The notes beneath the pieces were generated by a model. The model had not been told where the DNA came from. It made no database searches and was given only the letters and a program-made list of their open reading frames with translations. Below, piece after piece: positions 1 through 50,205 of a stretch of DNA of 64,000 nucleotides; the stretch's first letter is position 1; every line of letters starts with the position of its first letter. This DNA comes from Cyanidioschyzon merolae (taxonomy: Eukaryota). Made by a program: the position numbers and the translations under genes. Location: NCBI GenBank assembly GCA_000091205.1, contig AP006485.2. One strand, given 5' to 3'.

Positions 1-1751
1 CCAGCGATGAGAGGTACACCGTCTCCGAGGTATCGCTTTGTGGGATATCCGCCCCCGCTGCGGCAACATCTGCACCTTGAATAGGGAGAAATAAGTGGTT
101 CGCCCGATCCATGTCAAAGGTCGAGAGCCGCAGACCAGTGAGCACCGGCAGTCACCTGGTGATGCAGCACAAGCACTGCTGCTGAACCTGGGAAGCACTC
201 TGTGGATGAGTTCTTCACGCGCGCACGCGCGCCCATAGTCTTTCAACTCAGTTGCATGATACCCGTAGGTGCGTAGAATAGAATGCTTTTTCGTGGTTTG
301 TAGCAGCTGCCTTCGAATGCGTTCAATTCCAAAAATAGAAAATAGAAGGAAAACGTATGAATTTGGGAGTTGGGCATCCTAGAGGGCCGTCGCGGCCAGG
401 TTCTACGAAGAAACGAAAGAATCCTCTTCTCACCGGCTATCGAGCGATGAGGACGAAGATAAAGAAGGCGGGAGATAGGAGTGAGAAAAGGAGTTTGCCC
501 GACGAGACGATGTGGAGACACTGGTGACTCTGAGGGCACGAGTTCTAGGAATCCTTGCTATGGTGCATTCAACCAGTATCAGTGCACGCATGGAGTTCGT
601 GAACCGAGACTTTAAAGCCGCCATCAATATCAGACGATATGTAGTGCTGTAGACGAGACCCGTGGAGCTGAAGCGATCCAACTTTGTGGGGAAGCCTCTC
701 CGGCTCGCAGTGCGCGCGGAAAAGCTGAAGCCGATAGCAGGCGGCAGGTCACAAAAGGCTGAGAGGCGTCTGTGGCTGGATGCATGTATATACATACGCT
801 ATATGGGCGCGGGGCGTTGATCATTTTAATGATCACTCAGGGATCTACACGCGTGTCAGGCGAGCATGGAACCGTGAACTGCTCGTTCTGTTCCTGCTCT
901 TACGAGTTGTTCAATCTTGTTCTGAACAGTTCAGCTGCGACATTCGAGGCGGAGCGATAGGGGCGTACCGATTCACTCGTGTCTCTAGGACGCTCGGTTG
1001 TTTATCCAGAATGGCTACTTCGACGCTTTCCCGTTGGAATTCGTGACGTCAATAGAATCGAGATGATCCGCGACGCCGTACAACAAGGCTTTTTTAACGT
1101 AACGGACACAAACTTTGAATTCATAGGCACTTGCATCCGCTTTTGTTCTTTTACCTATGCGTACCATGATCAAGGCAGAAATTCCTTGTGTCTTCTCTGT
1201 TAACCAACCACAAAAGCATGGCGGCGACGATTAGAGCTGCTCGACTGACACATGAAAAAATCTCGATGTCATTCCCTGAAGACTTGTTCACAAGCTCAAG
1301 CCGAGATTTTACTGAACTTGTCAGGCCAAATAATCGGTTCATTTCGAAAGAGAAATTGTGCTGTCTTTATAGTCATCGACGGAATGGGATTCCAAACCAG
1401 CTGGATGCCTCGGAAGCAATGTATCTTCAGCGACTGCCGTCTTCTCTGTCCGAATCGAAAACGGGTCTTGGACTCCGACATGAGCCATCGCAGCGATTGT
1501 TTTCCGGGAAGCGTGCGTCAGTGATTTGCACGAAGAGAGCGTAGACGGCTCCGCATTTTTGACTTGGTCTCCAGTCTGGATATTCCCTTCCAATACTTGC
1601 TGCATCATGGTCAACATCGCGATCAGCGTACCCGCTAGCTCATGGAACAGCGTAGACGTGCGCGTGCATCGAGCAGCGTCCTCGCCGAAGGCATCGCCAT
1701 CAGGGACCTCTTGGTCGTAGTGTAAGATGCCGGACTCGGAAAATCGGAGTA

Positions 1752-2066
1752 GTGTATCGAGGGTATGCATTTGTACCCGCCATGCGCATGTATCGCTCGA
1801 TGAAGCCAGCGCTCCAGCGCCACAGCACATCCGTCGCAGCAGAGGACAGTTTCGCGAAGCAAGAAGAAAACCCGGCCACACTCAAGTGTCACTGCTGTGA
1901 CAGATGCTCCAGCGCTGTTTGCCCAGAAGATGAAGATCTGAATCGATTCATAGATCGCAACGTTCGCCTATGCCAAGAAAGCATCGACAACAACGGAAAG
2001 CAGCGACATCGGGACTTGAACGCTACAATCAACATCCGTCCACTGCTGACAATGAAACTGGTGTAA
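1752..2066 (+). pseudogene. Diverged TnpB/Fanzor-like C-terminal remnant (zinc finger plus RuvC-III-like motif). The wider region ~780-2070 is broken across several frames.
   Basis: The ORF translates to ...LQRHSTSVAAEDSFAKQEENPATLKCHCCDRC...LCQESIDNNGKQRHRDLNATINIRPLL. This parallels ...RALVYAADSLFTDTIAQKELVIPRYCTECGH...CIKC..RNRDLSTTIRVL of the 41-kb element and the bacterial TnpB C-terminus (CxxC...CxxC...DRDVNAAxNI). Upstream + frames are fragmented (GIRDVNRI, VFIVIDGMGF, SFPEDLF motifs in different frames). Confidence 0.35.
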
Positions 2067-3290
2067 AAGAAGAAACCGCCGTATCCATAGCCGGAGGTTA
2101 GAGAGCTGTGAACGAAGCAAGCACAGAAATGCCCACGTATATGCCGCTGAACAAGAAAATGCATCGAAGACCAATCGTTTCAGTCTTCTCCGGACTTGGG
2201 CCTGCCCATATGTCCCTTTTGATGCTAACGTGCGCATCGTGTGCCGATACCCGTACAGAGCGCTTCACACGTCACAAATTCCGCACCTGCACGCTGCATA
2301 GAGCATCCTGGCGTGCTTCACTTGGACAGTACTTGTACGAATCTGGAGCAAACCAGTCATCTGTGGAGGTGCTGCCTACGCTTCAGAACACACACGCCAC
2401 AGCCTTGCACAAACGTTTCAGCACGGGCGTTTTGTCCAATCGATTTTTTTCGATGCGAAAACCTTTACGTTGACCATAGATTCCAGATTGCGTGATAGAT
2501 AATGGATTTCGGGAAAGCGTCCATATTGAAGCACCTACCTTCAGGTTCCGTTACCCATACTTCCTCTCGGATATACTGGTCGTCTCGCACGTTCTGTCGT
2601 GCGACGACTGCCTGCCGTGAGCACCCGCCGTTGCGCTTCTATACACCGCTGAAGCAGATGTTGCACGGATACAGAACGGCATTGCCATTCCACTGAGGGC
2701 GTCGGCTCGAGGCGTAATTCATCCGACACGACGTCGGAGTACAGAATTATTCTGGGAGCCTGCGACAGCGCAAACCGATCTACCAGGCGTCCACTGCAAC
2801 CAGGGCGACGCCAAGACGCAGCATACGCGCTCCTAGTCCCAGAATGAATTGCGTTGCAGACGATCCGCTCAGTTTTCAGTACAGCACCTGCCACTTGGGG
2901 GAGCAGGAAGCACTAGCCAGCCCCGCAGACTCGTCCGGCTCGCGGGACCTTCCGCCTAGAAGGTAAGCTTTCGAAAATACGGAAACTTTTCCCCTTTTCA
3001 ACGCTTCCTATCAAGGTCAAACAGCACTGTTATCGAGTTGCTAGTTAGTGGTCAGTTTCGGTTCTCTCAGTTCGGAGACTTGGTCGAATCGATGCACCGT
3101 CAGCGCGCGCCTTCGTCGAGGCGCCGATCGCGTGTACGCGGCAGCAGCGCAGGGGCCGGCACGCTGAAGGCACCTCCGCTGTGCTGGTGGCAACGCGCAG
3201 GCCTCGTGTGCGACACGAAAGCATACGCAGCCGAGTGGCACAAACTCGCCGTGCTGTCGTGTTTATCACCAGTTTGCACTCTGGTCGTGA

Positions 3291-17753: not shown

Positions 17754-18846
17754 GGAGCGCGCAGAACCCTATCGGTCGCTGAAGCGTAGCGGTACGGGAG
17801 CAGCTCACGAAACGCGCGCCGCAGCTGAGGGCGCACATTCGATTCGAGATTCGGCAAATAAAACAGTATAAAATTGTCATTAATGGGATGAAAGGTGTCC
17901 ACTGCTGGGATGATAGCTGTGAGGCAGACAGTGAGCGCTGCTTTGTAGCACGATACCAGTGCAGCGATAGTGAAGTCGCTGAAGCGTCAAACCCGCCGCT
18001 AGACCGAGGATAACGCGGTCAAGACTCGCGAGTATTGGGAAGATCGGTTTTGTACGGGGCTCCTCGGGCGCGATGCGCTCGTTCCAGCATAGCGGCAATG
18101 GGTTACAGCCTGCGTGACGTGCGTGACATTCTGCTCCGGGCTACTCGGCAGTGCGTCCGTTGTGCGCACTGGTACCAGTATGAAAGCGGAGTCGCGGACT
18201 GCGACTGTTAAGCGTGGGTGCACGATACCATCATCGGTGTCGGAAAGCTAATGTGTCTTTGTCTGGTGTTCGCAACGTGGTGCATCTGTACGCAGCAATG
18301 TCGATGAATAGAATACCATGCTCGATCAGTATTTACTTGGGAACGTTGCCCCGGGGGTACATAGATCGCCGTGCAGCCTTTCTGGATTACTGAATGATAC
18401 CACGCGAGTGTCTGGCTCAACACGTAATTCGAGTGCCATTTATCCTGGACAGTGAATTTGTTTCTCCGCAAGTCTCGCGCGTTTCCGAGCGATACGCGGA
18501 GTGAATTACGAACATTGAACTCGAAGCATCGCTCGATACGAAGCCGCTGGACGCTCACCAGACCCGACACATTTTCGTATTCTGATTGATGCAGTCAGGT
18601 GTCGATGCGGAAAAGATTTGCGCGCATGGTTGCTGGCGGAATCACTCCAGGATCGGTTTCAGACCTGCGACTACCACGCCATCTCAGGTTCGAACAGCTT
18701 ACCGTATACCATATCCGTGTATGCGCCTCTGTTTCATGCGCTCCCCGACCGTTTTCAGCGCAACCCGTGCTTGTGATGCATGTATTTCGTCCTGAACGCA
18801 TCGATGGGAATCCAGCAACTTCGATCGCTCCACTTGCTGTACGCTA

Positions 18847-21018
18847 ATGTCGACGGGGCACGCGTGCAGCCGCTCCACCACCAATTTCACGAACGTAGTG
18901 TCACGCCGACGCCGCCGCCGACGCTGCTGCACAGCCGTAAACACCAGCCGCTGCGCGTGCCGATCGCATCCCAGGACGCCACCGTTATTCAGAACGTTTT
19001 CGCAACGTACAAACGCAACTTCCATGTACGAACTGTGTCAACCAACGGGGACTGCTGGATACCCTTATTTTCTCTTTGGATCGCAACAGGATCAGCGTCT
19101 CAACTACAGATCGGTTATTGTGCACCGCGCTGGACTAGCTCAAGAGACGGCTGGCGATGGCGGCGTCAGCACGAGCAGCAGCGCTGAAACCGGGAACAGC
19201 GTCAGCGCTTTGGCGTCAGCAGCCGCAGGGCGTCGTGTCAAGTTTCGGGAGCTGCGTCGAACGAAAATCGTATGTACTATAGGGCCTCCGACGGCCTCTT
19301 ATGAGATGATCAAGGCTCTTGCAGACGCTGGAATGGACGTTGCTCGCTTGAACTTCAGTCACGGGACGTACGAGTTCCACAAGAAAGTATCGGACGCCGT
19401 CGATCGCGTCAATGAGGAGCGTTTTGAGAAAGCTCGTCGAAGGTGGACGTCGCACGACGAGGCACGTGAGCAGTTGACAGACTCCGCCAAATCGGTGGCG
19501 GTGTCTGACGCCGGTCCCCTGCGTACCGAGAGCACGTCAAGCTCCACTGACTCGCTGAATAGTGTGTCGGGCCTCGAGTACAGAAATGACGCTAAGAGCG
19601 CTCTGTATGTGCGCATTGGGAAAATGATGGACTCAAAAGGTGCGGAAGTGCGCAGCGGGGAGATCAACCGAGCGGAGGAGATTGCGAAGCGAATGGTGGA
19701 GCACGGCTTGGTGACCTCCGATCAGGTAACAGAACTCGTGAGCCAAAACACCATGTTAATGCCGGCAGGAAGCTCGCTCGTTCTGCGTTGTACGCATGAG
19801 GCATTTGAGAAGCAGCCGGAACCTCTTGAGGGTGTCGCGGTGAAAGGCTCCGTTTTACCTTTTGCGCCAGTAGTCGGTGTCAGCTATGCGGGATTCTTCG
19901 AGGACACAGCCGAAGGCGATTGTATTCTTGTTGATGGCGGTCTCTTGGAGTTACAGCTGGAGCGCAAGGACGCTGACAAACGGGATCTCATCTGCCGCGT
20001 GTTGGACGGTGGCGAGCTCTCGCCCCGTCGCCATTTGAACATTCGCGGAAAGACGGCGTCGTTGCCCTCGGTTACCGAATCCGATTGGAAGGATATCGAG
20101 TTCGCTGTGAAGGAACTCAACGTGGACTTTATCGCCTTGTCGTTTGTGAATGACGCTGAAACCGTTCACATGGTGCGAGAATTTGTCACGAAACTTGGCT
20201 CGCGGGCGGCGATCATCAGCAAGATCGAGAGCATGAAGGGTGTGCTGAACCTCCCCGCAATCATCGAGGCAAGCGACGGGGTTATGGTGGCGCGTGGCGA
20301 CCTCGGTAGCGAGCTGCCCCTGGAAGAGGTGCCTATCGTCCAGTCCTTCATGGTGCGTCTTTGTCGAGCGGCAGGCAAAGTGGTCATTACGGCCACGGAG
20401 ATGCTCGAGTCCATGATCGAGAAGCCCATCCCGACGCGGGCGGAGGCCTCGGACGTGGCCCATGCCGTGGAGCAGGGCGCCGATGCACTGATGCTCAGCG
20501 GCGAGACCGCCAAGGGAAAGTATCCGATCAGAGCCTGTGCCACGATGCGCCATATTATCATGCGACAAAACGAGCAGCTCATTGCAGACGAACGTGCTCG
20601 TCAGGGGCTGGATCCGATTGCCGGCTTTGCCGAGTGTTGCCGCGACGTGGAGCGTGTATCCGATGCCATGGCCCGAGCAGCGGTCTCTCTGGCGGAATCG
20701 TTAGACGCGGCCGCGATCATCGTCTTCACACGAACGGGCAACATGCCCAAGCGCCTCTCGAAGCTGCGGTCACGAATACCGATCGTTGCTGCGACTGCAG
20801 TTTCCGATATCCAACCGAAACTCTCGCTCTTGTGGAACGTATTCTGTGTAACCATTGAAGTGCAGGATACGTTTGAAGCAACGTTCCAACGCTTCAAAGA
20901 GGAAGTTTTGGCGGAGAACTTTTTACGAAAAGGTGATACGGTTGTGGTGGTACAGAGTGGCATGCGTGGTATCTGGCGAGAACAGGGCCATCATCTGCTC
21001 CGCTATGTGGTAATGTAA
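18847..21018 (+). CDS. Pyruvate kinase with a ~140-aa N-terminal extension and an enlarged B-domain insert.
   Basis: KIVCTIGPPTASYEMIKALADAGMDVARLNFSHGTYEFH (pyruvate kinase N-terminal A-domain). MVARGDLGSELPLEEVP, ITATEMLESMI, ADALMLSGETAKGKYP and a C-terminal regulatory domain. The start is ATG. Confidence 0.8.
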   Translation: MSTGHACSRSTTNFTNVVSRRRRRRRCCTAVNTSRCACRSHPRTPPLFRTFSQRTNATSMYELCQPTGTAGYPYFLFGSQQDQRLNYRSVIVHRAGLAQETAGDGGVSTSSSAETGNSVSALASAAAGRRVKFRELRRTKIVCTIGPPTASYEMIKALADAGMDVARLNFSHGTYEFHKKVSDAVDRVNEERFEKARRRWTSHDEAREQLTDSAKSVAVSDAGPLRTESTSSSTDSLNSVSGLEYRNDAKSALYVRIGKMMDSKGAEVRSGEINRAEEIAKRMVEHGLVTSDQVTELVSQNTMLMPAGSSLVLRCTHEAFEKQPEPLEGVAVKGSVLPFAPVVGVSYAGFFEDTAEGDCILVDGGLLELQLERKDADKRDLICRVLDGGELSPRRHLNIRGKTASLPSVTESDWKDIEFAVKELNVDFIALSFVNDAETVHMVREFVTKLGSRAAIISKIESMKGVLNLPAIIEASDGVMVARGDLGSELPLEEVPIVQSFMVRLCRAAGKVVITATEMLESMIEKPIPTRAEASDVAHAVEQGADALMLSGETAKGKYPIRACATMRHIIMRQNEQLIADERARQGLDPIAGFAECCRDVERVSDAMARAAVSLAESLDAAAIIVFTRTGNMPKRLSKLRSRIPIVAATAVSDIQPKLSLLWNVFCVTIEVQDTFEATFQRFKEEVLAENFLRKGDTVVVVQSGMRGIWREQGHHLLRYVVM

Positions 21019-22778
21019 AGGGACAGAGCGCATGCTCCAGAGGCCCCGGATACCCGCTGACGATCATAGCCGGTGTAAAGAGTGGCGCGGGAATCTTGCG
21101 CTTCCACGGAGCATGATGTTGGCGCGTGCGCTCTCTCACTGAGTCTCTCAGTACCAGGAAGCCAAGCAAAGCGATATGCGCACGGTGCTCGCTTGGTACC
21201 TGGGTGCAGCGTGCGCACGGCAGCGCTGCTTCCCGCACCACTGCCGCCAAAAAACGGAACGGGTCGACGAGCGCGGTCGTACGCGATAACGTTTGGTTCG
21301 CTTATCACATCAATAACACAAGCTTTTCGGCGCTTTTTTCTCTGTGACTGCTTCATGGTATCGTCTCTTTTATTCGGCTTTATATTCGTTGGTCTTTCCT
21401 CTTCGGTAAGCTCCGTTGTCAGCAGTCGAAGGATGTTGATGGCAGCGTGCAACTCCTGATTTCGCTGTTTCCGACTGTATTCCATGCATTTCATGACCAA
21501 GCGGAAGCTTCGACCTACGCTTCTTCTGAAACGAACATCTTCTTCGTTCTATAAAGCATCGGCGTGCTCTTCGCAGCGGGCACACTTGGATCCTGTCAGG
21601 TATACTCATGTTTCGGCCAGAGCGTATTCTACGAGCGGTGTCCCACGGAGCACGAACGCGTGCTTCATCACTCGGAATACATCCCTAACTGGTACAGAAA
21701 AATCCAGTCAATGTCATTCTCCGTCTTCGCGCTCGCTGCCGCACCACAGGATCATGAGTTCTCCCATACTGTTCCTTTGGGCGAGTCCTATGTCTGCTGC
21801 AGACACAAGCGCAGGCTACACCATTCGATAGGTAATTTGTGGAGCTTGATGCTGTGTATCATGGGCAAGCATCGGAATGGCATTGAGTCTTGAGAACGAG
21901 TCCAGAAATACTGATTCGTGTACGCTACCTTCGAGCAAAGTGGTTATGCCCGCGCGACTGGTGCGGATCGTTGCAATGATTAACGTCCGAGTCGGATGTT
22001 ATTTGCGATGCCGAACGAAAACACGGGAGCATCTGGGAGCATATTCCATGACTGGTATCGAGTTCGTGTGGAGAGATATTTCGTCCATGTCGACAAAGAA
22101 GGAAGGGTTTCGTCTGCGAACGGACTCGTTTACTGGACGTGAGAATTTTAGTGAGTTTTCGGCATGAGGTCACGAAGGAGTCGTCAACGTACAAAGTCGA
22201 AACTTCGCTCGCCAATCCAGCGGCGCGAATCTCTTCCCCGTGTTTTTGCTTGAAACGTGGAGATCGTGATCTTGAAATATACGACATTTGAGCATACGAA
22301 ACGTAAATAAAGGAGAAGAATGGAGGCTTGGACCAATGAACAGGATCATGAGATAGGTACTTTTACCGGCCCCTGTTGGAGGATGTCACGAATCATGCCG
22401 ATTCTGGTAACGTAACGATTCCAAACTGCAAAGACTCGAAGAAACCACTGCAAAAGACAAAGAAAACAACGCATCAATCTGTAAACCCATTGTTGATGCA
22501 CATCGAATGCAGTGGCTGTACATCTAGATCAAGCTAGGAGAATATTTCGGAATCTAGGAACAGCGCCAGCAGTTCAGCGCTCCATTCGAACCCCACAAGA
22601 GTCTAGCGTTCAGAGCGGGCACTTTGTCAACGTTTCTACCAAGCCGGCTCCCCAGTTTGACGCGTCGTCAAGAAAGACACACACGCTGTCCAGGCATACA
22701 TTGCAGCAACCAAGCCGTGCGCGACATCCGAAGCGCAAGGCGTCGTAGAGCGCTTTTCCGCCTGGAGACGACGCCTCC

Positions 22779-30394: not shown

Positions 30395-30640
30395 GTGCGG
30401 CGTCCTGTGCTTTACAAAAGCGCATAGAGTCAGGCGCGTACACAGCATCGTAATTGTGCTATGGAGACGGACTAGGATGATGGAAAGAACGTCTATAGTT
30501 ATATAGGTTTTTACAGATCGATGCGACGACCTGGGGATTCCCCGAATTTCTCCCGGTCTTGGATTGTCGGTATGGACCAGTGGATGCCCGACTACCAGCG
30601 ACACCCTGATGAGTGCGCGTCCCTGATCGAGCCGCATGCT

Positions 30641-30945
30641 AGACGGGCACAGAAGCTTATGCTCGATTCCTGGGTATGTTTTTGCAACTGGTGCCGGTCC
30701 GTAAGATCATCGGTTTCTGCTGGGCGATCCCGAAGCCGAGTACGCTGTCTGCGACACACGCAAGTGCACGCTGTTGCATTTGGTAGAGGACTCGTTGAAA
30801 GTGATATTTCCGTGACGAAACAAGTACAAGAAGCAAACTCGAACCTGGAGAACACGTCGAAAAACTTCCACACGACAACGCTCTCTTTATGCGACCCGAT
30901 GACGCACGCTTCGATGGATGTGATCGCTGTGATGATTCGAGTCCA
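30641..30945 (-). mobile_element. 305-bp fragment of the TnpB/Fanzor-like repeat family (copy C).
   Basis: Near-identical to 33876-34181. The minus-strand translation ...SSLLLVLVSSRKYHFQRVLYQMQQRALACVADSVLGFGIAQQKPMILRTGTSC parallels ...SLLHHDRYRVPELVYRMEQRALVYAADSLFTDTIAQKELVIPRYCTECGH of the 41-kb element. Both copies end at the same point (gacgggcacagaagc). Confidence 0.6.
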
Positions 30946-31662
30946 AGATCGTTTTCCATGCAAAAAGCAGAGACGAGAACCTCTGGGAATATATCCCAGT
31001 AGAGGTATCGTGTTGCTGCGGAATGCTGCTTCTTCATTCGGTACAAAGTGCGGAAAATTTGCGTCTCGATCCAAATGAATGATTTCGCATGACGAATTCA
31101 GTGGTCTGTCGTCATGGGCGTATGAACAAGTCTTCGAAGGATGAATTCGAAGTCTCTATTCGTCAATACAGCGGCACGAGCTGCTGTGCAAGTGAGCTGC
31201 ATTGAAACTGAGCGAGCGAAAACATGAAGGATGCGTCACTTGTGCTTCCTACTTATAAGGAAATGCACAGAGAGAAGACCTGCATGCATGAACTGGATAA
31301 TGCTTCATGTTATTGTAGAGACGCCTGCTCGATGACGCCGCGAATCACCCTGACTACGATCACGTATCGAATTCCAGCGGCATAGCGCCAAACGATCCAT
31401 TCTGAGAAGACGACCACGAGTCCTAGAGTTACACATAAATCCATCATCACTTGTTGCAGCACTTTGAGCAGCGATCCTGTACATTTAAAATTGAACGTAA
31501 AAAGCGATAGGTAGGAAGATAGCTAGCGTTTCCGTGTTGATCACACACGGTTTTGGTGAAGCGCCCAGGCTCGCCGTCCAGCGCCGACGCCGACCCGCCA
31601 CGTGCGCACGCGAAGCCAACATGACATCGTTTTGAACGACGAAAACGTGTCGGAGAGTGCAG

Positions 31663-33222: not shown

Positions 33223-33875
33223 TCGCGACACACGATAAAGCGCGTTGTGGATACGTTGTTGACCTCGGGTGTGTTCGAATCGTTAGGATCTCACACATGC
33301 GCAGGGCGTGATCTAAAGTCCATCGATTTCATTAGCGAATACATATTCATTTGAAAAATCCGATCCAAGTCGACGCATGTTCATCAAACGCGAGGTACCA
33401 GCATCCCTGCACGGTGACTACATTCCATCCATATTAGAATGACATGGAGCTAGTCCACTGATCCAATTCGAGCGAACGAGCCAGAGTTTGGGTCTCTCCC
33501 AACTGTGAAGAATACCAGCCAGCCATGACTGGCTTGTAATGAGACTGCTTCCTTTTCCTGTCTCTGATCTCCGGATTTTGAATACGGAGGTCCCTTTTTA
33601 CCCCTATATCCGTCGTCAGCTGTCGAGGATTGCTGCGTGCAGCGCTCAAGTTCCGACTTTGCTGCTTCCGACTCTTCGCAATCTATTTCATGCGTTGACG
33701 ACAGTTTGGATCCACGCTTCGTTTGCCATGTTCATCCTCTTTGCGTACAGCTTCAATGCGCCAGTCCGTGCATCGAAAATCGGCTGCGATCAGGTATGCC
33801 CATAAGTCCATGAGACCACCTTCGAATGCCGCTCTGTGGTGCATGAGCGCTTTCTTCATCGCTCGGGCGATACCC

Positions 33876-34181
33876 TCGACGGGCACAGAAGCTTATGCTC
33901 GATTCCTGGGTATGTTTTTGCAACTGGTGCCGGTCCGTAAGATCATCGGTTACAGCTGGGCGATCCCGAAGCCGAGTACGCTGTCTGCGACACACGCAAG
34001 TGCACGCTGTTGCATTTGGTAGAGGACTCGTTGAAAGTGATATTTTCCGTGACGAAACAAGTACAAGAAGCAAAATCCAACCTGGAGAACACGTCGAAAA
34101 ACTTCCACACGACAACGCTCTCTTTATGCGACCCGATGACGCACGCTTCGATGGATGTGATCGCTGTGCTTTCCAAGCGGA
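33876..34181 (-). mobile_element. 305-bp fragment of the TnpB/Fanzor-like repeat family (copy D). It is a direct repeat of copy C on the other side of DHODH.
   Basis: Nucleotide identity to 30641-30945 with one 2-bp difference and a few substitutions. It carries the same reading frames (…SHPSKRASSGRIKRALSCGSFSTCSPG…). Confidence 0.6.
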
Positions 34182-35742
34182 GCGCAGCGAATCCTCCTGG
34201 TCCCCGTGACGTAACAAATTCCATCGACAAAGCGTCGAAGGAGCCATTCCGAGAACGCGACCGAGAATCCTAAAAGCACATATGAATCTGAAACCTGATA
34301 TGAACGTTTTCAGAATATGGCGGCTGAACATGCAAAACAAGTATCGATAAAAAAACCGATACCCTGGAACAGACCGACCAGTGCATATTTCCATTTGAAT
34401 CGTACAAGGGTGCAGGCTCGACAACGTCAAAGCGGGATCGATCAGAACACTGGAGCGTCGGGAACTACAGTTGAGAGCGCGATGATGCTGGTCGATAGCC
34501 GCTGGGACCTCGAGGTGTCTGCACAGGCGTAGAGGTCTCTTCCGTAGCCGCTGGAAGCACGCGCGTTTCACTGGGCAGTGCGGATGCATCCGCCCTACCG
34601 AGTGCAGAAAAAAGCCATAGGCAACAAGCACGTCTCTTTCCAAAGCAGCGACGCAGTTGCATATTCCGCTAGGCAGGGTGCCTGTTCCGTTCCAGCGAAT
34701 CAGTGGCTGTAGAGCAGCTGCATGGACTCTGGGCTCATAGGCAGCGGTCGTTCGATACCACCAATGCTCGATTGTCGTGCCGCTCGCCTCCGGTGCGTAG
34801 CGGGACAACAACGACAACGACGACCATAGCAACTGCAATGACGGTATGGTATAGAATAAACCGTCTGCTCTCGCTGGAGCAGGGCATCGTCGACATCGCG
34901 AAGCTCGCCTGACAGAGGAGTGCCCCCGAAGCGGAACGCGTCTGCGTCATGCATTCCTCGTGCAGAGGCTACCACCCTGGAGGCAGTTTCCGCATATCGC
35001 GGGCTCTAGCAGCGAGCCCGCCTTCGAAGCAAGTTCGATACGAACGCATATCGTCCGAGTCGAAGGGCCCAATTTAGTTGAAGACTTCTGCTTGCGGTTC
35101 GCGAGAGGAAAGCGAATACACCATGTGACGATGCATGCGTCGCTGATACGATGGATTCCACGCTGCCGTCTCGAAGCGTTGCGTCAAAAACGCTTGAGAA
35201 GCCTCTAGACACAATCACACATGAAGCCGCTGACTGGTACGTTTTCATCGGCCGTTCGCGCTGCTCCACAGACAATCCGGCATGTCCTCAACGGTCTCGT
35301 TTGCGAGCTGTGGTACAGCCTCGCCTGCAACCAGCGCACGCTTAGGACGGTACCCTGATGCCTTTTTCTCGAATACCATGATGCTGGATACGGTATCAAG
35401 CTGCAGACCGGTATCTGGTGGAGTCGCCTTCAAGTCCGAGGCCGACGCGACGAAGTGTCCCTCTGGGGGTATCCCGTGCAACGCTGGCATCGCCACAAGC
35501 GACCTGAACGAGCTTCGCTGACGCAGGGAACTTTCGTCGCTTGTAAACCGGGAATCGATGCAGTCTCGTGGCGTGCGTCGCCTTTGGTCTTTCGTTTACG
35601 AGAGATGAGCACGCGCTAACGCATTGTGCGCGCGTTATCTTCAGCATGACACTCGACAGCGAGATCGTCTTGCGTATGCATATGCTCCGCGTTTCTCGAT
35701 ACAAGCTGGGCGCAGTAGACGAGCCCCCGCCGAATGGCCTCA

Positions 35743-38594: not shown

Positions 38595-40322
38595 ATGAAA
38601 GCGCACGACTCATTGTGGCCTCTGAGCGAGCAAGGCCCATCGAGTTGTCGTCAACCAGGAGAGCGTGTTCGCCGGCAGCTACCCCAAAGCATGACTTTAG
38701 GCAGAGCCACGGGTATGAAGCGCAAACCCAATGACTCTGGAACGCAAAAGATAGCACCAGGTGCAGCACAAGATTCCAATGAACTGGACACGTTGGAAGC
38801 GGCCTCGCCGTTCACCAGGGCGGGACAGCCCCTGAAACCGACTGTCACTGCGGAGACCGTCGCCTCCGGTGCCACCTGCTCGCAACAGGCAAGTCCTGAC
38901 CCTGAATATTACGGAGAATCGTCACGAGACCGATGGTCGCAAGCGCTGGATGATGCCGTGCGATGGACCAGCAGCGATGCAGCTTGGGGCTCAGAGGCGA
39001 CGCCTGCGCTTCCAGGAGCCAGCTGCGTATCGGATCAATCCGCGCAGACAAAGGAACCGCTACTGCCGTCCGAACGACATCCGTTGTCCTCGCGAGACGT
39101 TTCACCGTCGTCGCTTCTGGAGACCACGGGTAGCGTGTCCGGTGCCGCGCCTCAGCACGATATGGAGCCAGTCACCGTGTACGCTCTCGCAGGTCAGCGA
39201 CTCGATGCAGGTATGGCGGCAGGCACGTCTCTGAGCCACAGCACGGACAGCTCAGCGGGAACAAGCAGCCAATCGTCCGGTAATGCGGCAACAGTGGTGA
39301 CTGGCGTGAAGCTCCAACTCACTTCAAATCAAGCATCCTGGCGAGAATCTGCCGCGGAATCGGCAGAGCTCATCGTATATCCGAGTCAAAATGACGATAC
39401 TCGGCAGCATGCCTCTAGTCGCGGACGCACACTCCAAGAAGAGTCAATGGAGAACAGGGATTCCTGGCCAATTCTCCAGCTGCTCTCGGAGGCTGGCTTT
39501 GGCGCTCGTCTGGATTCGAATACGGAAAACCCGGCAGGGCTGCGCGCTTTTCGGCAGTCACCATTCAACTTCTACGATAGCCCGCTTCGGCAGCACGTTT
39601 TTGTCGAGTGGAACACTGGTCATACTGGATTTACTCCTGAACCTTGCAACGCTTGGCAGCCAATGGTTTCAGATGCAGAAGCGTTTCGAGATTCATCACC
39701 AGCGTCTCGAGTGTTCTCCCCGGGTCTCACGGTCTGGGCCACAGACGGATCTCCAGCCAGTGGTGCAGAGCTCTCCGGACGTGACGTTTTCGAGGCCCCA
39801 GCAGAATCACCGCAACCTCTCACGCGTGCCTACTCTTCGACTGACGCCGAGCCTTCTGTGAAGTCTGCTGAGGCGCTTCGGGGCCCTGATGTCAAGAATG
39901 GCGGCGCTGGCGAATCCATCGGCGAAAGAGAGCTTCGGATTGCTGCGGAAAGAGCGCAGATACCGGTTTCACTCCGCGAGCGCACTTCGGAGAAGGCTCT
40001 GCAAGCAGCCGCAGATGCCACGTCCGATATGGAAGCGCTCGTAGCGGACTTGCGGCAGCGATTGCAGGAACTGCATCCGAGTGACCATTGGACAATATGG
40101 AGTTGTATGCAGGCGCTTGCCGCTGGAGAGTGCAGCGCTTCGACTTGCGCGCCGTGCTCAGCTGCTTCCTCGAAGCGACGAGACGACGCGGACACAAGCA
40201 CGACAGTCCGCAATGCAGCTGAAACGCTAGCCATTCAGTTGCTTTCACGTCGCGATACCGTAGGGCATCGAGACGCGAGCACGCCTCCGGTGTTTGATCC
40301 GCAGGGCTCGACGCTTTTTTAA
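38595..40322 (+). CDS. Hypothetical acidic Ser/Ala/Thr/Pro-rich low-complexity protein.
   Basis: A continuous 576-aa ORF from the first ATG. Compositionally biased, with no recognisable domain. Its coding status rests on ORF length only. Confidence 0.3.
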   Translation: MKAHDSLWPLSEQGPSSCRQPGERVRRQLPQSMTLGRATGMKRKPNDSGTQKIAPGAAQDSNELDTLEAASPFTRAGQPLKPTVTAETVASGATCSQQASPDPEYYGESSRDRWSQALDDAVRWTSSDAAWGSEATPALPGASCVSDQSAQTKEPLLPSERHPLSSRDVSPSSLLETTGSVSGAAPQHDMEPVTVYALAGQRLDAGMAAGTSLSHSTDSSAGTSSQSSGNAATVVTGVKLQLTSNQASWRESAAESAELIVYPSQNDDTRQHASSRGRTLQEESMENRDSWPILQLLSEAGFGARLDSNTENPAGLRAFRQSPFNFYDSPLRQHVFVEWNTGHTGFTPEPCNAWQPMVSDAEAFRDSSPASRVFSPGLTVWATDGSPASGAELSGRDVFEAPAESPQPLTRAYSSTDAEPSVKSAEALRGPDVKNGGAGESIGERELRIAAERAQIPVSLRERTSEKALQAAADATSDMEALVADLRQRLQELHPSDHWTIWSCMQALAAGECSASTCAPCSAASSKRRDDADTSTTVRNAAETLAIQLLSRRDTVGHRDASTPPVFDPQGSTLF

Positions 40323-40892
40323 GTCTCTGTTCGAAAGACGTTTCCACTTGCGGTACGTTCTTCTCGGCATTTGAGGAGGTACCGATGCACGGTACAACGT
40401 TGACGCTTTCTAAAGTTTCCATTTGAAAATATTTGGACATTTGATGCATCTTTCGCGCTATTCGAAGCGGTGTGAATGCGGCGAGCGCATGAACACGCCT
40501 GCTCAGATCCACGCACTGGTACTGGTACACTGGTACACTTTCCTGCGCCGATGTGAGCGCATGTTGCAGCTGTAGACAGCCGTCGCTTTCTACGCAACCA
40601 TTCTGGGCATGGGAGGTATGGCGTGGACAGCTGCGTGCAACCGTTGTCGTTGCGTGAATGTACAGGCAGCGTCGCACGGGCGTCATTACCACGGCATGAG
40701 GTTCTCCGAGCGTCCATTTGGAGGCAGCGTTGCCGTGAGATGCTCGCAACGCTATTTCGGAGCTTATCAGTCTAACGATGGTTAGCATCCACGATAGGCG
40801 CGATAGCTCAAGAAGGTCGCTCGATAGAGTATGAGGATCATGCATGGGGTAATCTCTGGCGGGTGCTCGTTGGACCTACTGCCATGTCGGAT

Positions 40893-42262
40893 TCAAAGCG
40901 AACGCTGAACAGCTCGTTCCGCTCCTGCTTTGTGATTCTTTTCTGAACGTTTTTATTTGACGCCAACGCTAGCCATTCGAAAAGCATAAACAGGTGTTCG
41001 TGGACTCGTGTATAGTTTTGGGATTCCTGTGAGCGTGCCTCCATCGACGCTTTGCAGATGGGATGCGTTCTCCTCATCGGCATCAGGATGACGCTCGATT
41101 CTGTCCAATATGCTTACCTACATGCATCCCCGCTACTCCTTTCCGTAAACGTACAAGAATCAACAAGTTCGCTCTTCGAGGTCTCCAGCTTACCGTGTTC
41201 ACGGCAACGCGTAGGTACGGCAACTCACGTCGCTGGAGACGCTGGAAAGAGAGCACAACGTCGTCCCTGACCGACTTGCTCGCTAGCTTGTAGTGAGCGC
41301 CCACTGCGCTCGTCACCTCAAAGGTAACCCATGTCGTCCGAAAGCCGTACCCTACGCTCTTCGTTGCCACCGACGAAGAGACACTCGACGAGACCGGCCT
41401 GCTGCCTCTCACGGCATACGCGCACAGGCGCCCCGGGTATCCTCTGTTTGCACTGATAACGGTCTGCGACTCAGACTCGAGTCATCGCAGCAGTCGCTTC
41501 GCGTAGCGCGTACGTCACCGCGTCGGACAGCGTTGCGCGTTGACGGACCAGGATCAACCCCGGAGTGCTTCCCCAGCCTGGAGGCTCTCTCGCTCTCTCC
41601 GGTCCCTGCTTCACCACGATCGGTATCGCGTTCCGGAACTCGTCTATAGAATGGAACAGCGAGCGCTTGTGTATGCAGCAGATAGCCTATTCACCGACAC
41701 GATCGCTCAGAAGGAGCTCGTGATCCCACGGTACTGCACCGAGTGCGGACACCAGGCATGGCAACCCGGAGAGCCCGCTGTACCTTCAAGCGGCGTCTAC
41801 GGACTGACGGAGCAAGCGATCATACGTCACTGCAGACAAGTACGCGGTAACGCATGCGCTGTGGCAGACGTACGTGTATGCGTATCGAACGAGAAGCGAT
41901 TGTGAGTGTATCGACGGGCGACCCGCGGTTGTATCCAAGGACGATCATGGAAATGGGAAGCGCAGTCTAGATGCCAAGCTCCGCCTGTGCATAAAATGCG
42001 TCGATGAGCGTCGGAAATCGCGGAATCGGGACTTGAGCACGACCATCAGAGTGTTGCAACGATCGACACTGGAAGAAGAGGGACCCTGCGGATGTATGTG
42101 GTGACAGTCGGATATCTGATCGAGGAAAAGGAACCCGTCGCATACAAGACCCGCAAATGCTCGTCTTTACGCCAACTGAAACACAAATCCAATATTCATC
42201 CTGAATCTCCGAGTCCTGCAAGTTGACCATTCCACTTTATACGCTGACACGAACGCTAAACG
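40893..42262 (+). mobile_element. ~1.37-kb TnpB/Fanzor-like element, copy A. It carries a TnpB-type ORF broken across three + frames (IS1341/IS607-like tnpB-only architecture).
   Basis: Frame 41293: ...GIRAQAPRVSSVCTDNGLRLRLESSQQSLRVARTSPRRTAL (RuvC-I-like GIDLG...SDG region). Frame 41540: RYRVPELVYRMEQRALVYAADSLFTDTIAQKELVIPRYCTECGH (zinc finger CxxC). Frame 41874: LCIKCVDERRKSRNRDLSTTIRVL (second CxxC plus RuvC-III-like RDxNAAxNI). It is near-identical to 48628-49997 with a constant 7,735-bp offset. Confidence 0.6.
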
Positions 42263-42382
42263 CTCAAGTTCGCTGGAGCGCTACCCTGAGGGCAGCTCGC
42301 GCGCCGCCGATGGCACGAATCCCTCTGAACATGCCGTGGACCTGCTGGATACCGGTATCGTGAACGCTGACATTGTGAACCC

Positions 42383-42841
42383 ATGTTTCGCCTGGGGTTT
42401 TCCATCCAGCGTCATGCTCCAAAGTGCCCGTTTTTGCATATAGAACTGCCAACGCGACAAAGGCGCACAGCGGTGTGCCCAGCGGCGAAAACCGCGGTCA
42501 CTGCCTCTCGTCGCCCGAGGCTTGCTATGGTGATCCCCGGTGACTCGCAAGCAGAGTTTGTTTTTCTCAGCGGAACCGTAACGTTCTTGAACGTCTACCA
42601 AAACCTCTTATTTGCTCGCATTATTTTGAGCTGGTTTCCGGCTGCGAGCCAGTTGAGTCTATTACAGCCGCTGTACGTGGTATGTGACCCGTTCTTGCGC
42701 TTTTTTCAGGGCATCTTACCACCAGTGGCGGGTATCGACTTTTCGCCGATCTTAGGGTTTACACTTTTACAGCTAGGTGCGAGGCTAACGGCGGCGCTCG
42801 GTCAGGAGTGCCCCAGCCGCGACGTTGCCAAGGCACCCTAA
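42383..42841 (+). CDS. YGGT-family membrane protein (Ycf19/YlmG-like, plastid/cyanobacterial type) with an N-terminal presequence.
   Basis: FLNVYQNLLFARIILSWFPAASQLSLLQPLYVVCDPFLRFFQGILPPVAGIDFSPILGFTLLQLGARLTAAL matches the YGGT signature (…WFP…CDP.L..FRGIIPP.GG.D.SPI…). The start is ATG. Confidence 0.7.
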   Translation: MFRLGFSIQRHAPKCPFLHIELPTRQRRTAVCPAAKTAVTASRRPRLAMVIPGDSQAEFVFLSGTVTFLNVYQNLLFARIILSWFPAASQLSLLQPLYVVCDPFLRFFQGILPPVAGIDFSPILGFTLLQLGARLTAALGQECPSRDVAKAP

Positions 42842-43783
42842 GCGCCTAGTGTGTTTGTGGTGTGACGTTATTCGCGCGCCAGTCTCGCCCAGCGGTTGTC
42901 GGTTCGTGCCTAGCAGCGCATCGTATCCAAAGTTGATCGTTCCCTGCTACGAATACGACGGGAGACACTGTTGCGTGTTTTCGCTGGAACGACGGATATC
43001 GGCTGGCTTGGAACGTTGGCGTCGTCGGGGAATCCACCTAGGCTAGCGTGTTATCGAAGAATCGGAACTGAGTACGATGAGTCTTGGCTAATATAGCGAT
43101 CGTGGTAATGCGCTACGGCTTTGGTGAGCAGGTTCCTCGGGAGCGTCGTGCTTGACGTCAGACGTAGCTGCTTGACAGGGAGAGAGCGAACGCGAGTTCG
43201 TGGGAATGTTATCCGATCTGCATTGGAGGCAGCTTTATCGCCCCTGAGCCTCGTCTCTGCAACACTTGTGACGTCGCTGATCCTTGCGGTTGTCTTTGAT
43301 GAATGAATTGCAGCTGGTTATGGTATGAGGCAGTGCTCCGTCGTGCATGCAGTGTGCCTTTCGATGGTCCGAATCGTTCGGTGTCGAGCGCACTTCTCAG
43401 GGTCACGGCGTTGCGCGTGGCCTAATGTCTGCGCTAGCGACGGTAGCGCGGTGATGAAGATGTCGCATCCTGGACCCGCATGACAGCTGCAAATCAAACG
43501 AAGACTCTACGGGAACACAGACTTATATCGTTTCGTAGCCAGCCAAGAAAAAATGTTTGCGGAGAAGGTGCGCTCTAGAGCGACCCTTTGCGTGGAAGCG
43601 ATAGTTGATGTGTTCCGGGCATTTGTCAGGCACCCTGCTACTTGCTTCCTCGCTGATACCACAGCGTATAAAATCCATCATATTCGGGCGGGAATCGCTC
43701 TCGGCTGGAGTCAGGGCACCGAAAGCTGTCCCAGCAACCGCGTACCTACAGATAGCTGGATATGCCGGCACCAGCGACACGAC

Positions 43784-44353
43784 TCAGGTTTCTGCAAATG
43801 CGCTTGCACGTCGTTTGCGGTACCAGTCAAACCAGAAAAAGAAAGCACTCTGGCGGAACTGGTCTGGAAGCTTCCAGGGATCGTCGCCGCGCTGGCTGCC
43901 GCCTTTGCCGGAGCCTTCCCTGCCAGCGCTGGCAGAAGCATCGACGCCAGATGGATTAATGTAACCCGTGCCGTTGCAACGACCACAAGTCACACGCCCG
44001 GTAGCACTGCAACGCAAACAGGCGTGAGGCACGCGTTCGCCTTCTACTTGGAAAAAGGTTTTCCCCTGGCACTGGAAGCACTTGACACGTCCCTCGCCTC
44101 GGCAGTCAGGGCACCGCCGTGGGCCACTTTTTTCAGTCTGTCTCCGTGCCTGAACTATCCGGTAAGCACCAACCGTGATAAACGCTGCTCCAACCGCAAT
44201 GGCAGCCTCCTTCTTCCAGAGTAGAAGCGGCACGGGCGGAGCGAAGTGGAGCACCCCGCTTCCGGCCTTAGGTACTGCCGCAGGACAGTTTTGCAACGCC
44301 AACCGACGACAACAGTGCTGAACACCCGTCACAAGATCAGGCGAAAAGTTCAT
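43784..44353 (-). CDS. DnaJ-like CR-type zinc-finger membrane protein (CxxCxGxG x4; BSD2/LQY1/PSA2-like).
   Basis: TM helix AIAVGAAFITVGAYRIV followed by RRCPDCRGEGRVKCFQCQGKT...CLRCSATGRVTCGRCNGTG (four CxxCxGxG units). The track start 44395 is TTG; the first ATG is at 44353. Confidence 0.6.
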   Translation of the reverse strand: MNFSPDLVTGVQHCCRRLALQNCPAAVPKAGSGVLHFAPPVPLLLWKKEAAIAVGAAFITVGAYRIVQARRQTEKSGPRRCPDCRGEGRVKCFQCQGKTFFQVEGERVPHACLRCSATGRVTCGRCNGTGYINPSGVDASASAGREGSGKGGSQRGDDPWKLPDQFRQSAFFFWFDWYRKRRASAFAET

Positions 44354-44705
44354 TTGCGTAGTCGTATATGCGATAGAACCCCGTTCGGAAAGCAACTCGC
44401 GATCGACGCTACCAAGTGCAGCGAAACGCGATACGGTGGTGGAAGCGAAACAAACGCTGGCTTCGACGACGCCAGCGATCCCCCGGGGGATGACGCTTCA
44501 CGAACCATTCGCTCCTGTTGCTGCGTTTGGAGGTGTATTCGGGGTTCCTCGGGTTTATCCAATCGACTAGACACAGCAATTCTGCAACAGAGAAGTAGCT
44601 GGGGCCTGTAGAGTACGGAGTCTGGATAGTCCGGACGTTCGGTGCTGACACGCTGGTCTGAGCTGGTGCATACGAAGCGCTGGAAACTCGAGTCGCTCAG
44701 CGGAC

Positions 44706-46694: not shown

Positions 46695-47085
46695 GTGACT
46701 CGGGTGGATGCAGCCCCCGGAAGAACTGTTGTATGCAGCAATCACGTGGCAAGCACATTGTGAGGATTCGGCACGACGCTTTCAGCGATATAGCGAAAGC
46801 GGTTCGTTTGAAGGCTTCAGACGAGCCAGCACTTGGATTCGATGTGTGCACGGTAACGCACTGACCCAGTCGTTGGCCAATGGCCGACTGCAAGCGCACG
46901 ATAGTCCGAGGGCATGCGACACCTTCACCCGCTGTGCAGCGTGTTACTCATGAAGCATTGGTATAGGAATATACGAATATGCGGATCCACGCCTAGGACT
47001 GCATCCGTAGATGACTGGAGGCTGGTGGCTCGCCGGCCGGTCCGCCAGCCCATGTTCGAGGTGCAATGATTGCTCTCGGGTGATG

Positions 47086-47283
47086 GTGCAGGTTCACGTG
47101 GAAGCGACCTTGCACTGCAACCACGTATGGTGCCTGATACATATTCCAATGCTGCAGGTTCACGTGGAAGCGACCTTGCACTGCAACCACGTATGGTGCC
47201 TGATACGTATTCCAAGGCTGCAGGTTCACGTGGAAGCGACCTTGCACTGCAACCACGTATGATGCCTGATACGTATTCCAAGG
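47086..47283. repeat. 66-bp tandem repeat, 3 copies, in the convergent intergenic region.
   Basis: The unit gcaggttcacgtggaagcgaccttgcactgcaaccacgtatggtgcctgatacatattccaatgct occurs three times with a few substitutions. Confidence 0.85.
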
Positions 47284-47704
47284 AAGCGTGACGCGCGCGT
47301 GCAGCCCAGAAATAACACGGTGCACCTGAAGCTGTCGCAGTCGTATTTCGAGTGGCAGAACAAGGCACGAATGACCTGAACTCGACAGCATTAGGTGCAG
47401 TCGCCGTGAATATGCTTGTACAGGGCGCCGCGCCCGCGTCTAAAGAGCGCTCCATCCTGTGCAGACGCTAGCGTCCAGCTGTTGTGTCTGTGCGTATCAA
47501 GCTGGTGACGTCTCCGATTATGAACCAAGCGTTCCGAGCGATACCTTATCAATATCGCACGCCTGCTGCTACTCATCAGCGACATCGTAGGTGCAACGGT
47601 ACACGCAACCAAGTGCCGATATAGGCACGTCTCAGGCAGGTACCGAGGATTCCCAGGCACAGCAGCAGGGGCGCGAGTTTCGAAGCCAGTTCCGCGATGC
47701 TGTC

Positions 47705-48427: not shown

Positions 48428-48627
48428 AACCTTGCAGGTTGAAGTTGAACGAGGTACTTCTTCTGCAAAGCAAGTTTACCAGTGCAACGGCCCTTTTCGC
48501 AAGCCTTGCACGAGTAACCAGCAAGAAAAAGGCTGGCGCAAGCGTCCACTATGGAAACAAAGTGAATGCTAGCTGGTTATCAGCAATGGAGGTGCGGATG
48601 CTGTCTGCTCAGAACAGCGTACTGGAC

Positions 48628-49997: not shown

Positions 49998-50205
49998 GTC
50001 GCAGCAAGCAGATACCTCGGGACGCTCTTTCCGCTCGTTCGGCATACGCGGCCTCCACAGACCTGTATCTCGAACAGACGCATCCGAGTGTCTGAACTCG
50101 GCTTTTCATTGCTCGTCGAAAGGAGACCGGGTCTGGAGCTTTCGTAACTGCGTTGCGTTTTTATTTGGGGTATTGTACAGATAACTGGAATAGAAGTTGT
50201 GAAGT

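Follow-up and report, generated by a model that had tools for sequence, protein, structure and literature searches.

A decayed repeat family joining part of an IS630/Tc1/mariner-type transposase gene to a Fanzor1 3' end in Cyanidioschyzon merolae

The first 3 kb of a 64,000-nucleotide stretch of Cyanidioschyzon merolae DNA (GenBank assembly GCA_000091205.1, contig AP006485.2; hereafter the window) contain a sequence that an earlier note, made from the letters alone, had described as the remnant of a TnpB/Fanzor gene at 780-2070. A plus-strand element is indeed present there, but its true limits are 848-2236, positions 780-846 being the tail of a neighbouring copy of a different, CMe-1-type Fanzor1 element. 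The element, here termed copy A, is a chimeric, non-autonomous repeat of ~1.38 kb. The hidden Markov model (HMM) of the family, run at the DNA level with nhmmer, placed it at 840-2235 (model positions 7-1399 of 1401), and alignment of the termini refined the ends to 848-2236. It abuts a TA dinucleotide on the left (846-847), a putative target-site duplication revealed by the same alignment, and is bounded by a left terminal inverted repeat (TIR) at 848-873 (CACGCGTGTCAGGCGAGCATGGAAC...), identified by inverted match of the consensus ends, and a right TIR at 2208-2236 (...GATGCTAACGTGCGCA), identified from the termini alignment and the consensus ends. Between these lie the remains of two genes: a DDE transposase in the 5' two thirds and a Fanzor1 C-terminus in the 3' third.

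Copy A belongs to a family. Comparison of window positions 1-2600 with the whole window by blastn and tblastx returned DNA-level relatives at 65-80% identity, and self-comparison together with the DNA HMM defined a dispersed repeat of ~1.38 kb with seven copies. Besides copy A, these are copy B (21235-22612, minus strand), copy C (30501-31561, minus strand, 3' truncated at family position ~1094), copy D (33426-34574, minus strand, with a poorly related 5' part), copy E (40879-42256, plus strand), copy F (48622-49990, plus strand) and copy G (59416-60732, plus strand); for E and F the ends are refined from DNA HMM limits of 40870-42256 and 48623-49991, respectively. With 99.2% identity over 1367 bp and unrelated flanks, E and F form the youngest pair. 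The earlier note had counted six family members and pointed to parallel RD motifs in the other copies. The motifs were recovered by six-frame regular-expression search (RNRDLSTTIRVL at 42027 and 49762, RNRDVNAAVNLA at 60506) and the dispersed family is real, but six is an undercount: the window holds seven copies, and a second Fanzor1 family is represented in it by two remnants (533-772 and 18548-18871). A 36-nt degenerate pattern made from the best-conserved block recovers six of the seven copies, one site in each; the number expected from shuffles is 0.00. A scan of metagenome contigs with this pattern gave 17 loci. With a single exception these are the window's own loci, seen in strains that share 98-99.6% identity with it; the exception, L020, represents an eighth copy. 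Of the ~8 copies that the pattern can detect in this organism, at least 7 are therefore clustered inside the 64 kb window. Related organisms from other metagenomes carry the same chimeric structure, 1.3-1.45 kb long, at unrelated loci (L026, L027 and L029).

The ends of the family were next analysed at the level of the consensus. They form a 29-nt inverted repeat, 24/29 identical (CTACACCCGTGTCAGATTCAAATGGAACA vs CTGCACCCATGTCAGCATAAAATGGAACA), with a score reached by 0 of 5000 shuffles, and the TIR consensus reads CTRCACCCRTGTCAG...AAATGGAACA. When left ends of one copy were aligned with right ends of another, the observed score was reached in 18 to 77 of 2000 shuffles. TA dinucleotides flank copy E (40877-40878 and 42257-42258) and copy F (48620-48621 and 49991-49992) on both sides, in different flanking sequences, and a left-end TA is found in copies A, B, E and F. 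The left inverted repeat of copy F carries an 8-nt deletion. TIRs and a TA target are features of IS630/Tc1/mariner elements.

The coding content of the family was read from a consensus of 11 copies (1400 nt), drawn from the window and from L020, L022, L026, L027 and L029 at other loci of related organisms. This consensus consists of two unrelated parts in two reading frames: frame 1 reads ...LFVAIDETAFHSSMIPLTGYAPRGSRLFCLHGKGSWTRT.VIAAIASSEACV...FLDLFSSLDFPSGTCFIMDNIAFHKSS, and frame 0 is open for 215 codons to its stop, reading ...LYRMEQRALACAADSVLAEGIAQKKLVIVGYGTGCGNGEGHRGEPSVPVKGMYRAMKQAL...VVDIREHLTTAKCHCCEGRTEAVYKEDENGKRSVDRNFRLCMKCIDNSRKQRNRDLNAAINILRLLTTELEGQERPAYS.... A first majority consensus of six copies had seemed to run in one frame, with sub-threshold matches to both Pfam DDE_3 (E=2.9e-5) and PF07282 (E ~0.001-0.003), a match to NCBIfam IS630 at E=8.6e-4, and no helix-turn-helix (HTH) domain in Pfam. 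As the consensus improved, both signals rose, DDE_3 from 24.4 to 25.9 to 41.4 bits and PF07282 from 18.3 to 20.4 to 31.0 bits. The two parts are separated by a -1 frame offset that is identical in copies A, D and G; the single larger TnpB-like ORF (open reading frame) envisaged by the earlier note thus never existed.

The 3' part is derived from Fanzor1. Eight published proteins (CMe-1, CRe-1 to CRe-5, CVu-1 and VCa-1; Bao & Jurka supplement) served to build a Fanzor1 HMM, which consensus frame 0 matches with 59.5 bits over model positions 156-289 of 306; in hhalign the probability is 98.4% (P=6e-15). Pfam PF07282 is matched at 31.0 bits, above its curated cutoff of 26.3, and NCBIfam TnpB (NF040570) at E=8.4e-5, over model positions 330-388 of 389 only. 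About 150 residues of the consensus are colinear with Fanzor1, so that the similarity extends well beyond the RDLNATINI stretch from which the TnpB/Fanzor assignment had started. Within them, the landmarks of Fanzor1 occur at matching spacing: the KQRxL helix, VVxYG, PVKG, the RuvC-II Glu, two CxxC pairs, NRD.NAA.NI and the RP tail. The consensus reads MEQRAL...LVIVGYG...PVKG...DIREHLTTAKC, with 25 residues from QRAL to the Tyr of GYG, the same number as in CMe-1, and its zinc-ribbon/RuvC-III region (LTTAKCHCCEG...RLCMKC...RNRDLNAAINIL) fits the published Fanzor1 C-terminal motif, [TS]-[TS]-x-x-[C4 zinc finger]-x(5,50)-RD (Bao & Jurka 2013, PMC3627910). When all 1,600 ORF pieces of the window were scored against the Fanzor1 HMM, the family copies ranked directly beside the bona fide CMe-1 remnant. 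Individually, the Fanzor part of copy B (21336-21869, one frame with 5 stops) scores 23 bits and copy G 13 bits. In Fanzor1, the RuvC-I Asp (in GxDPG) lies 125-275 residues upstream of the zinc finger, and the protein also has N-terminal WED and REC regions. Fanzor1 HMM positions 1-155 have no match in the consensus, RuvC-I included; a DDE_3 transposase is encoded upstream instead.

That transposase occupies the frames (~900-1630 in copy A) which the earlier note had offered as the RuvC-I/II region of a larger Fanzor ORF; they encode the N-terminal two thirds of a DDE transposase. Consensus frame 1 matches Pfam DDE_3 (PF13358) at 41.4 bits (cutoff 28.6; E=1.7e-10), with the first and second catalytic motifs, D1 and D2, both present, and matches NCBIfam IS630 (NF033545) at E=6.9e-9. 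In the first pseudo-consensus, D1 and D2 are 77 residues apart. A profile (A6) of the DDE-like region was made from stop-free window translations only; among 1.84 billion representative proteins it retrieved 180 at E<=1e-3. The majority are short ORFs from decayed family members in related organisms, and the profile also retrieved intact proteins of 286-342 aa (P0073, P0132, P0134 and P0148), which carry DDE_3 at E=6e-23 to 3e-29 and, in some cases, HTH domains. These intact relatives align with the family as IDETGF...GY.P.GSRL...SW.R.S..AA...F..FL..L..P....L.MDN.AFHK, their profile matches covering D1 to D2 only, and the transposases of the Pythium ultimum elements PUl-1 and PUl-2 align colinearly as well. 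The contigs of the intact relatives are 1-1.4 kb long, too short to show a following Fanzor gene. When the family alignment was used in a word-indexed protein search, the only matches were metagenome versions of the window's own ORFs, and sequence searches of the PDB with a pseudo-protein and with another profile (A3) gave nothing relevant.

The two parts meet directly after D2: in the 11-copy consensus, D2 ends at ~nt 801, and the Fanzor1 HMM alignment begins at frame-0 residue 42, ~nt 795. In IS630/Tc1/mariner transposases the third catalytic residue lies ~34 residues after D2. No such residue (E/D) was found after D2 in the family, where there is strong Fanzor1 homology in the other frame; with the junction placed here, the third DDE residue is absent. 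A candidate third motif, 'YSP...E' in frame 1, with a junction near an in-frame stop, was considered and then rejected on the 11-copy consensus, as it is most likely Fanzor1 read in the wrong frame. The transposase gene is thus truncated after D2 and all copies are decayed, making the element non-autonomous.

Mapped onto copy A, both parts can be followed from end to end. Near the left end, MATSTLSRWNS (1011-1043; consensus GVAPSTLCRW) resembles the N-terminal DNA-binding domain of IS630/Tc1 transposases; this HTH-like similarity is weak (Pfam HTH_Tnp_4, E=0.024 on the consensus), and by eye the stretch is similar to ICARTVQRW of PUl-1/PUl-2 and GVSPSTICRW of P0132. The IS630/Tc1/mariner-type DDE_3 core, from D1 to D2 and with one frameshift, spans 1255-1627 as judged from DDE_3, profile A6 and tblastn with consensus frame 1, which matches 1255-1449 and 1460-1711. 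Three upstream motifs singled out by the earlier note are where it had placed them (GIRDVNRI at 1036-1059, SFPEDLF at 1269-1289 and (F)IVIDGMGF at 1366-1392), but the last is not a RuvC-I motif: FIVIDGMGF is D1 of the transposase (consensus VAIDETAF), and the Fanzor1 HMM has no match at RuvC-I. D2 reads IMVNIAIS (1604-1627; consensus IMDNIAFHKS), its Asp replaced by Val. The junction, with its -1 frame offset, falls at about 1627-1640, directly after D2, and is followed at 1639-1722 by the Fanzor1 helix and strand region LMEQRRRARASSSVLAEGIAIRDLLVVV (consensus MEQRALACAADSVLAEGIAQKKLVIVGYG; KQRxL...VVxYG in Fanzor1), which reads LMEQRRRA...LLVVV in this copy. After a further frameshift comes ORF 1752-2066 (stop codon 2064-2066), the Fanzor1 C-terminus. 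Its translation is exactly as previously quoted and it does hold the zinc finger and RuvC-III in one frame, together with a PVKG-like stretch (VPAMRMYRSMK, 1773-1805, aligned to PVKG) and the RuvC-II Glu position (in KQEENPATLKC, 1857-1889, aligned to DIREHLTTAKC of the consensus). The ORF reads TLKCHCCDRC...RLCQES...RHRDLNATINI, with the first CxxC in CHCCDRC (1887-1907), a degenerate second pair in RLCQES (1965-1982) and RuvC-III in HRDLNATINI (2007-2036). Copy A continues for 170 nt beyond the stop codon, up to the right inverted repeat. Its decay comprises a frameshift and stops in both parts, the D2 substitution and the degeneration of the second zinc-finger pair. The other copies are dead as well: stops and frameshifts affect both parts of every copy, E and F have most defects in common, the longest open piece of the DDE part is ORF 59716-60207 in copy G, and the earlier suggestion to build a consensus and seek an intact copy led to none, no intact ORF being present in the seven window copies or the relatives examined.

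We consider it likely that 848-2236 is a dead copy of a non-autonomous IS630/Tc1/mariner cut-and-paste transposon carrying a Fanzor1 relic, produced by internal deletion of a composite element. What is observed directly is the pair of homologies with their frame offset, the inverted repeats, the decay of the copies and, for the youngest of these, the TA flanks; the composite parent, the deletion and mobilisation in trans would account for them as follows. The parent would have been a ~3.5-kb composite with a complete mariner-type transposase gene followed, on the same strand, by a complete Fanzor1 gene. A single internal deletion may then have cut off the end of the transposase gene, where the third catalytic residue is encoded, and extended through the spacer into Fanzor1, of which the first ~75%, with RuvC-I, would have been lost. 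The resulting ancestor of the family would have begun with the 29-nt inverted repeat and the 5' part of the DDE_3 transposase gene (HTH-like region, D1 and D2), continued across the -1 frame-shift junction into the last ~150 Fanzor1 codons, from the KQRxL helix to the RP tail, with the RuvC-II Glu in a DE(Y/F)xTS-like motif, the C4 zinc ribbon and RuvC-III (NRDLNAAINI), and ended with an untranslated tail of ~80-170 nt and the second inverted repeat. Having lost the third DDE residue and the Fanzor RuvC-I, the hybrid could encode neither enzyme. As it lacks a complete transposase, it could spread only if a related transposase was supplied in trans; such an enzyme would have recognised the inverted repeats and inserted the element at TA, and the copies would have decayed afterwards. 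Because the chimeric form occurs at unrelated loci of other organisms, the deletion would be older than that spread.

Several results weigh against this reading or soften it. Neither the window nor the metagenome loci nor the contigs of relatives yielded a full-length parent, with intact transposase and intact Fanzor1 between these TIRs; we infer the deletion from architecture and precedent. Copy A by itself gives a weak profile signal: ORF 1752-2066 matches PF07282 at E=0.073, below the cutoff, and our Fanzor1 HMM at 10.2 bits only, so that the Fanzor identification rests on the family consensus; likewise, Pfam searches of raw ORFs and three-frame translations of copies A, B and E yielded sub-threshold matches only. 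At the ends, left-versus-right inverted-repeat alignments within single copies are not significant, those of the consensus and across copies alone being so. TA is clean on both sides only in E and F; at copy A the right flank (2237-2238) is TC, a degenerate TA, copy G is flanked by CA and CG, and the readable ends of B, C and D are degenerate too. At the junction, the stretch of frame 1 just past D2 adds ~5.5 bits to the DDE_3 match (41.4 vs 35.9), and L020 reads SSPDGDPGE past D2, resembling SPDLNPIE; together, these indicate that the junction could lie somewhat more 3' than placed. Finally, codon-position variability shows no consistent period-3 signal and does not independently support the frames.

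The proposal from which the work started, that the whole element is a decayed TnpB/Fanzor gene with RuvC-I/II upstream and that the DDE_3 match is a spurious RNase-H-fold cross-match, has some appeal, in that the element could hold a TnpB-sized protein of ~420 aa, 'hhVAIDE' superficially resembles Fanzor1 'VVGxDPG', and the C-terminal Fanzor1 homology is strong. We nevertheless judge it very improbable, since the Fanzor1 HMM and NCBIfam TnpB match the C-terminal part only (156-289/306 and 330-388/389), the upstream part exceeds the Pfam DDE_3 cutoff, a profile made upstream from window sequences only retrieves intact DDE_3 transposases that are colinear from D1 to D2, and the two parts are in different frames. 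The converse, a plain Tc1/mariner/IS630 transposon whose CxxC...CxxC...RDLNAAINI tail is a chance resemblance within the transposase C-terminus, would explain the TIRs, the TA flanks, the 1.38-kb size and the DDE_3 core, and the Tc1 motif SPDLNPIE does have 'DLN' in common with NRDLNAAINI. Chance, however, is hardly credible as the source of 59.5 bits over 134 Fanzor1 HMM positions, an hhalign P of 6e-15, a PF07282 match above cutoff, and a series of motifs at matching spacing (KQRxL, VVxYG, PVKG, E-x-x-T-T-x-x-C, two CxxC pairs, NRD.NAA.NI and the Fanzor1-specific RP tail), while the intact transposase relatives P0132, P0134 and P0148 have no such tail.

The origin of the chimera deserves separate consideration. 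Instead of by deletion, it might have arisen by nesting or recombination of a Fanzor1 fragment and a mariner-type element, either way round, with subsequent spread. Tails of CMe-1 type abut the family at two different junctions (~846 in the window and family position ~430 in L022), and no composite parent was found, both of which speak for such an origin. But the Fanzor tail of the family is of a different lineage from CMe-1 (blastp aligns 25 residues around RuvC-III, 52% identical), and the order and strand of the parts, transposase 5' and Fanzor 3' on the same strand, are exactly those of the PUl-1/PUl-2 composites; one junction is common to all copies, requiring a single event either way. 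On balance we regard nesting as unlikely and deletion of a composite as the better explanation. We give next to no credence to the idea that the hybrid is now, or was recently, a functional or domesticated gene, whether a DDE-Fanzor fusion or a short Fanzor-tail protein. Some copies do retain open stretches of 139-163 aa (ORF 59716-60207 of copy G) and orthologous ORFs are 98-99% conserved between metagenome strains, but that conservation (98-99.6%) is equal across flanks and non-coding parts. Moreover, every copy has stops and frameshifts in both parts, the 99%-identical E and F have most of theirs in common, the parts were already out of frame in the ancestor, and the DDE third residue and Fanzor RuvC-I are absent. 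As neither enzyme can be made, we expect no functional consequence.

One further role was considered for the 3' end. Fanzor and TnpB guide RNAs are normally encoded at the element's 3' end, and hybrids that retain the Fanzor1 3' end, tail and right TIR might in principle supply guide RNAs to a Fanzor1 made elsewhere, for example by CMe-1. If so, RNA-guided cleavage would be expected at TA-flanked empty sites, and the clustering (7 copies in 64 kb) and repeated abutment to CMe-1 tails could be explained. We think this a highly improbable conjecture: conservation within the family is lowest in the 3' tail, which also gives no structure signal, folding of window 2040-2240 being no better than that of shuffles (z=+0.85). 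No Rfam match was found in 1-3200, which is weak evidence because Fanzor guide RNAs are poorly represented in Rfam.

Composite elements of the kind proposed as parent are documented. Mariner elements with Fanzor1, TIRs of 24-33 bp and TA duplications have been described, among which PUl-1 (3620 bp) and PUl-2 of Pythium ultimum and PGv-1 of Phaeocystis globosa virus carry a DDE transposase gene followed by Fanzor1, and PUl-4 and MDe-7 are mariner-type elements with Fanzor1 alone (Bao & Jurka 2013, PMC3627910). We read the PUl-1 sequence directly: as in PUl-2, an IS630-like DDE_3 transposase lies 5' and Fanzor1 3' on the same strand. The transposase motifs of these two elements (ALDEAAF and LLDNxxTH) and the Fanzor motifs of PUl-1 (CIAYGDW, GPVKGF, MDEYRTSITC and NRDVNAARNM) all have counterparts in the family consensus. 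Unlike PUl-1, the family is only ~1.38 kb long, its transposase ends after D2, its Fanzor1 part starts ~150 aa before the C-terminus and in another frame, none of its copies is intact, and its TIR sequence is unrelated. With IS630/Tc1/mariner elements in general it shares the HTH-like N-terminus, 'DE..F' at D1, 'DN...H' at D2, TIRs and the TA target, but where those transposases have their third catalytic residue and C-terminal ~90 aa, the family has Fanzor1 sequence in another frame. The zinc-ribbon/TNB domain and RuvC-III motif are also those of bacterial TnpB (IS200/IS605 and IS607) and Cas12f; unlike these, the family has no RuvC-I, WED or REC, no omega-RNA-like structure or Rfam match was detected in its 3' tail, and its ends are TIRs with TA instead of IS605-type hairpins.

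The nearest described Fanzor1 in the same host lineage is CMe-1/CMe-1A, a C. merolae family of 3169 bp, ~150 copies, a 734-aa product and no TIRs (Bao & Jurka 2013, PMC3627910). The Fanzor1 C-terminal architecture is common to both (NRDFNAAINIRR compares with NRDLNAAINILR), but there is no DNA similarity and blastp aligns only the 25 residues around RuvC-III mentioned above, placing the two in different Fanzor1 lineages; CMe-1A, unlike the family, lacks TIRs, a defined target duplication and a transposase part. All told, the element is an ordinary inactive transposon that belongs to an already documented composite type; its novelty is limited to the family itself and to the host group. In Cyanidioschyzon-like red algae, Fanzor1 had so far been reported only as the TIR-less CMe-1 family, to which a second, mariner-associated lineage is now added. 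This agrees with earlier evidence that Tc1/mariner elements carry Fanzor1 genes in distant eukaryotes. For annotation, the RD.NAA.NI matches in the window are to be read as copies of one dead hybrid plus two CMe-1 remnants, not as six independent TnpB/Fanzor genes. More generally, RNase-H-fold motifs are easily confused by eye (DE..F with G.DPG, SPDLNPIE with RDLNAAINI), and where frames overlap in decayed repeats, two families can be mimicked at once; here it took a multi-copy consensus to tell them apart.

CMe-1-type sequences lie on both sides of copy A. An internally deleted CMe-1 copy occupies 284-846 and abuts the left end of copy A: 284-352 matches the 5' untranslated region and start codon of CMe-1A, and an N-terminal ORF (357-527) is joined directly to a C-terminus at 533-772 (RMEFVNRDFKAAINIRR...; 59% aa identity to CMe-1, E=2e-21) that carries a bona fide RuvC-III of CMe-1 type, with no other such motif in the first 3 kb. 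On the right, the first 634 nt of CMe-1A have a TE-N2_CMe-like counterpart of 79% identity at 2451-3065, so that copy A sits between a CMe-1 tail and a CMe-1 head or TE-N2 element. This first stretch of CMe-1A also exists as a separate C. merolae element, TE-N2_CMe, of ~635 bp and ~70 copies (Bao & Jurka 2013, PMC3627910). Judged from these similarities, the host would be a Cyanidioschyzon-like alga. A far more decayed CMe-1-like remnant with stops lies at 18548-18871 on the minus strand (tblastn 32% identity to CMe-1 residues 579-689, E=4e-9). At the unrelated locus L022 (4016-5411; ENA ERZ27249350, contig k141_200915), a CMe-1 tail abuts the family at position ~430 and not at the left inverted repeat, and a called protein, P0031, reads through both elements. 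The two transposable element families have thus nested repeatedly.

Three observations concern other copies. C and D have in common a 294-bp block at 98% identity (30719-31011 and 33875-34168, minus strand) and are otherwise only ~70% alike; this suggests gene conversion or partial duplication between the two, which lie 3 kb apart. In L005 (contig Ga0080006_1145043), the region corresponding to window 40131-50135 contains a single element with the left flank of E and the right flank of F, the 6.4 kb between E and F and one copy being absent, while the contigs of L015, L016 and L018 are colinear with the window; either recombination between the 99%-identical direct repeats or assembly collapse would give this arrangement. 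A 361-aa ORF (33753-34838, minus strand) runs through copy D in a frame that fits neither DDE nor Fanzor, contains APSTLCRW of the HTH-like region, and is most likely a chance open frame and not a gene. The family copies sit among apparently ordinary long ORFs, such as one of 648 aa at 56884-58830, whose sequence resembles a glycyl-tRNA synthetase.

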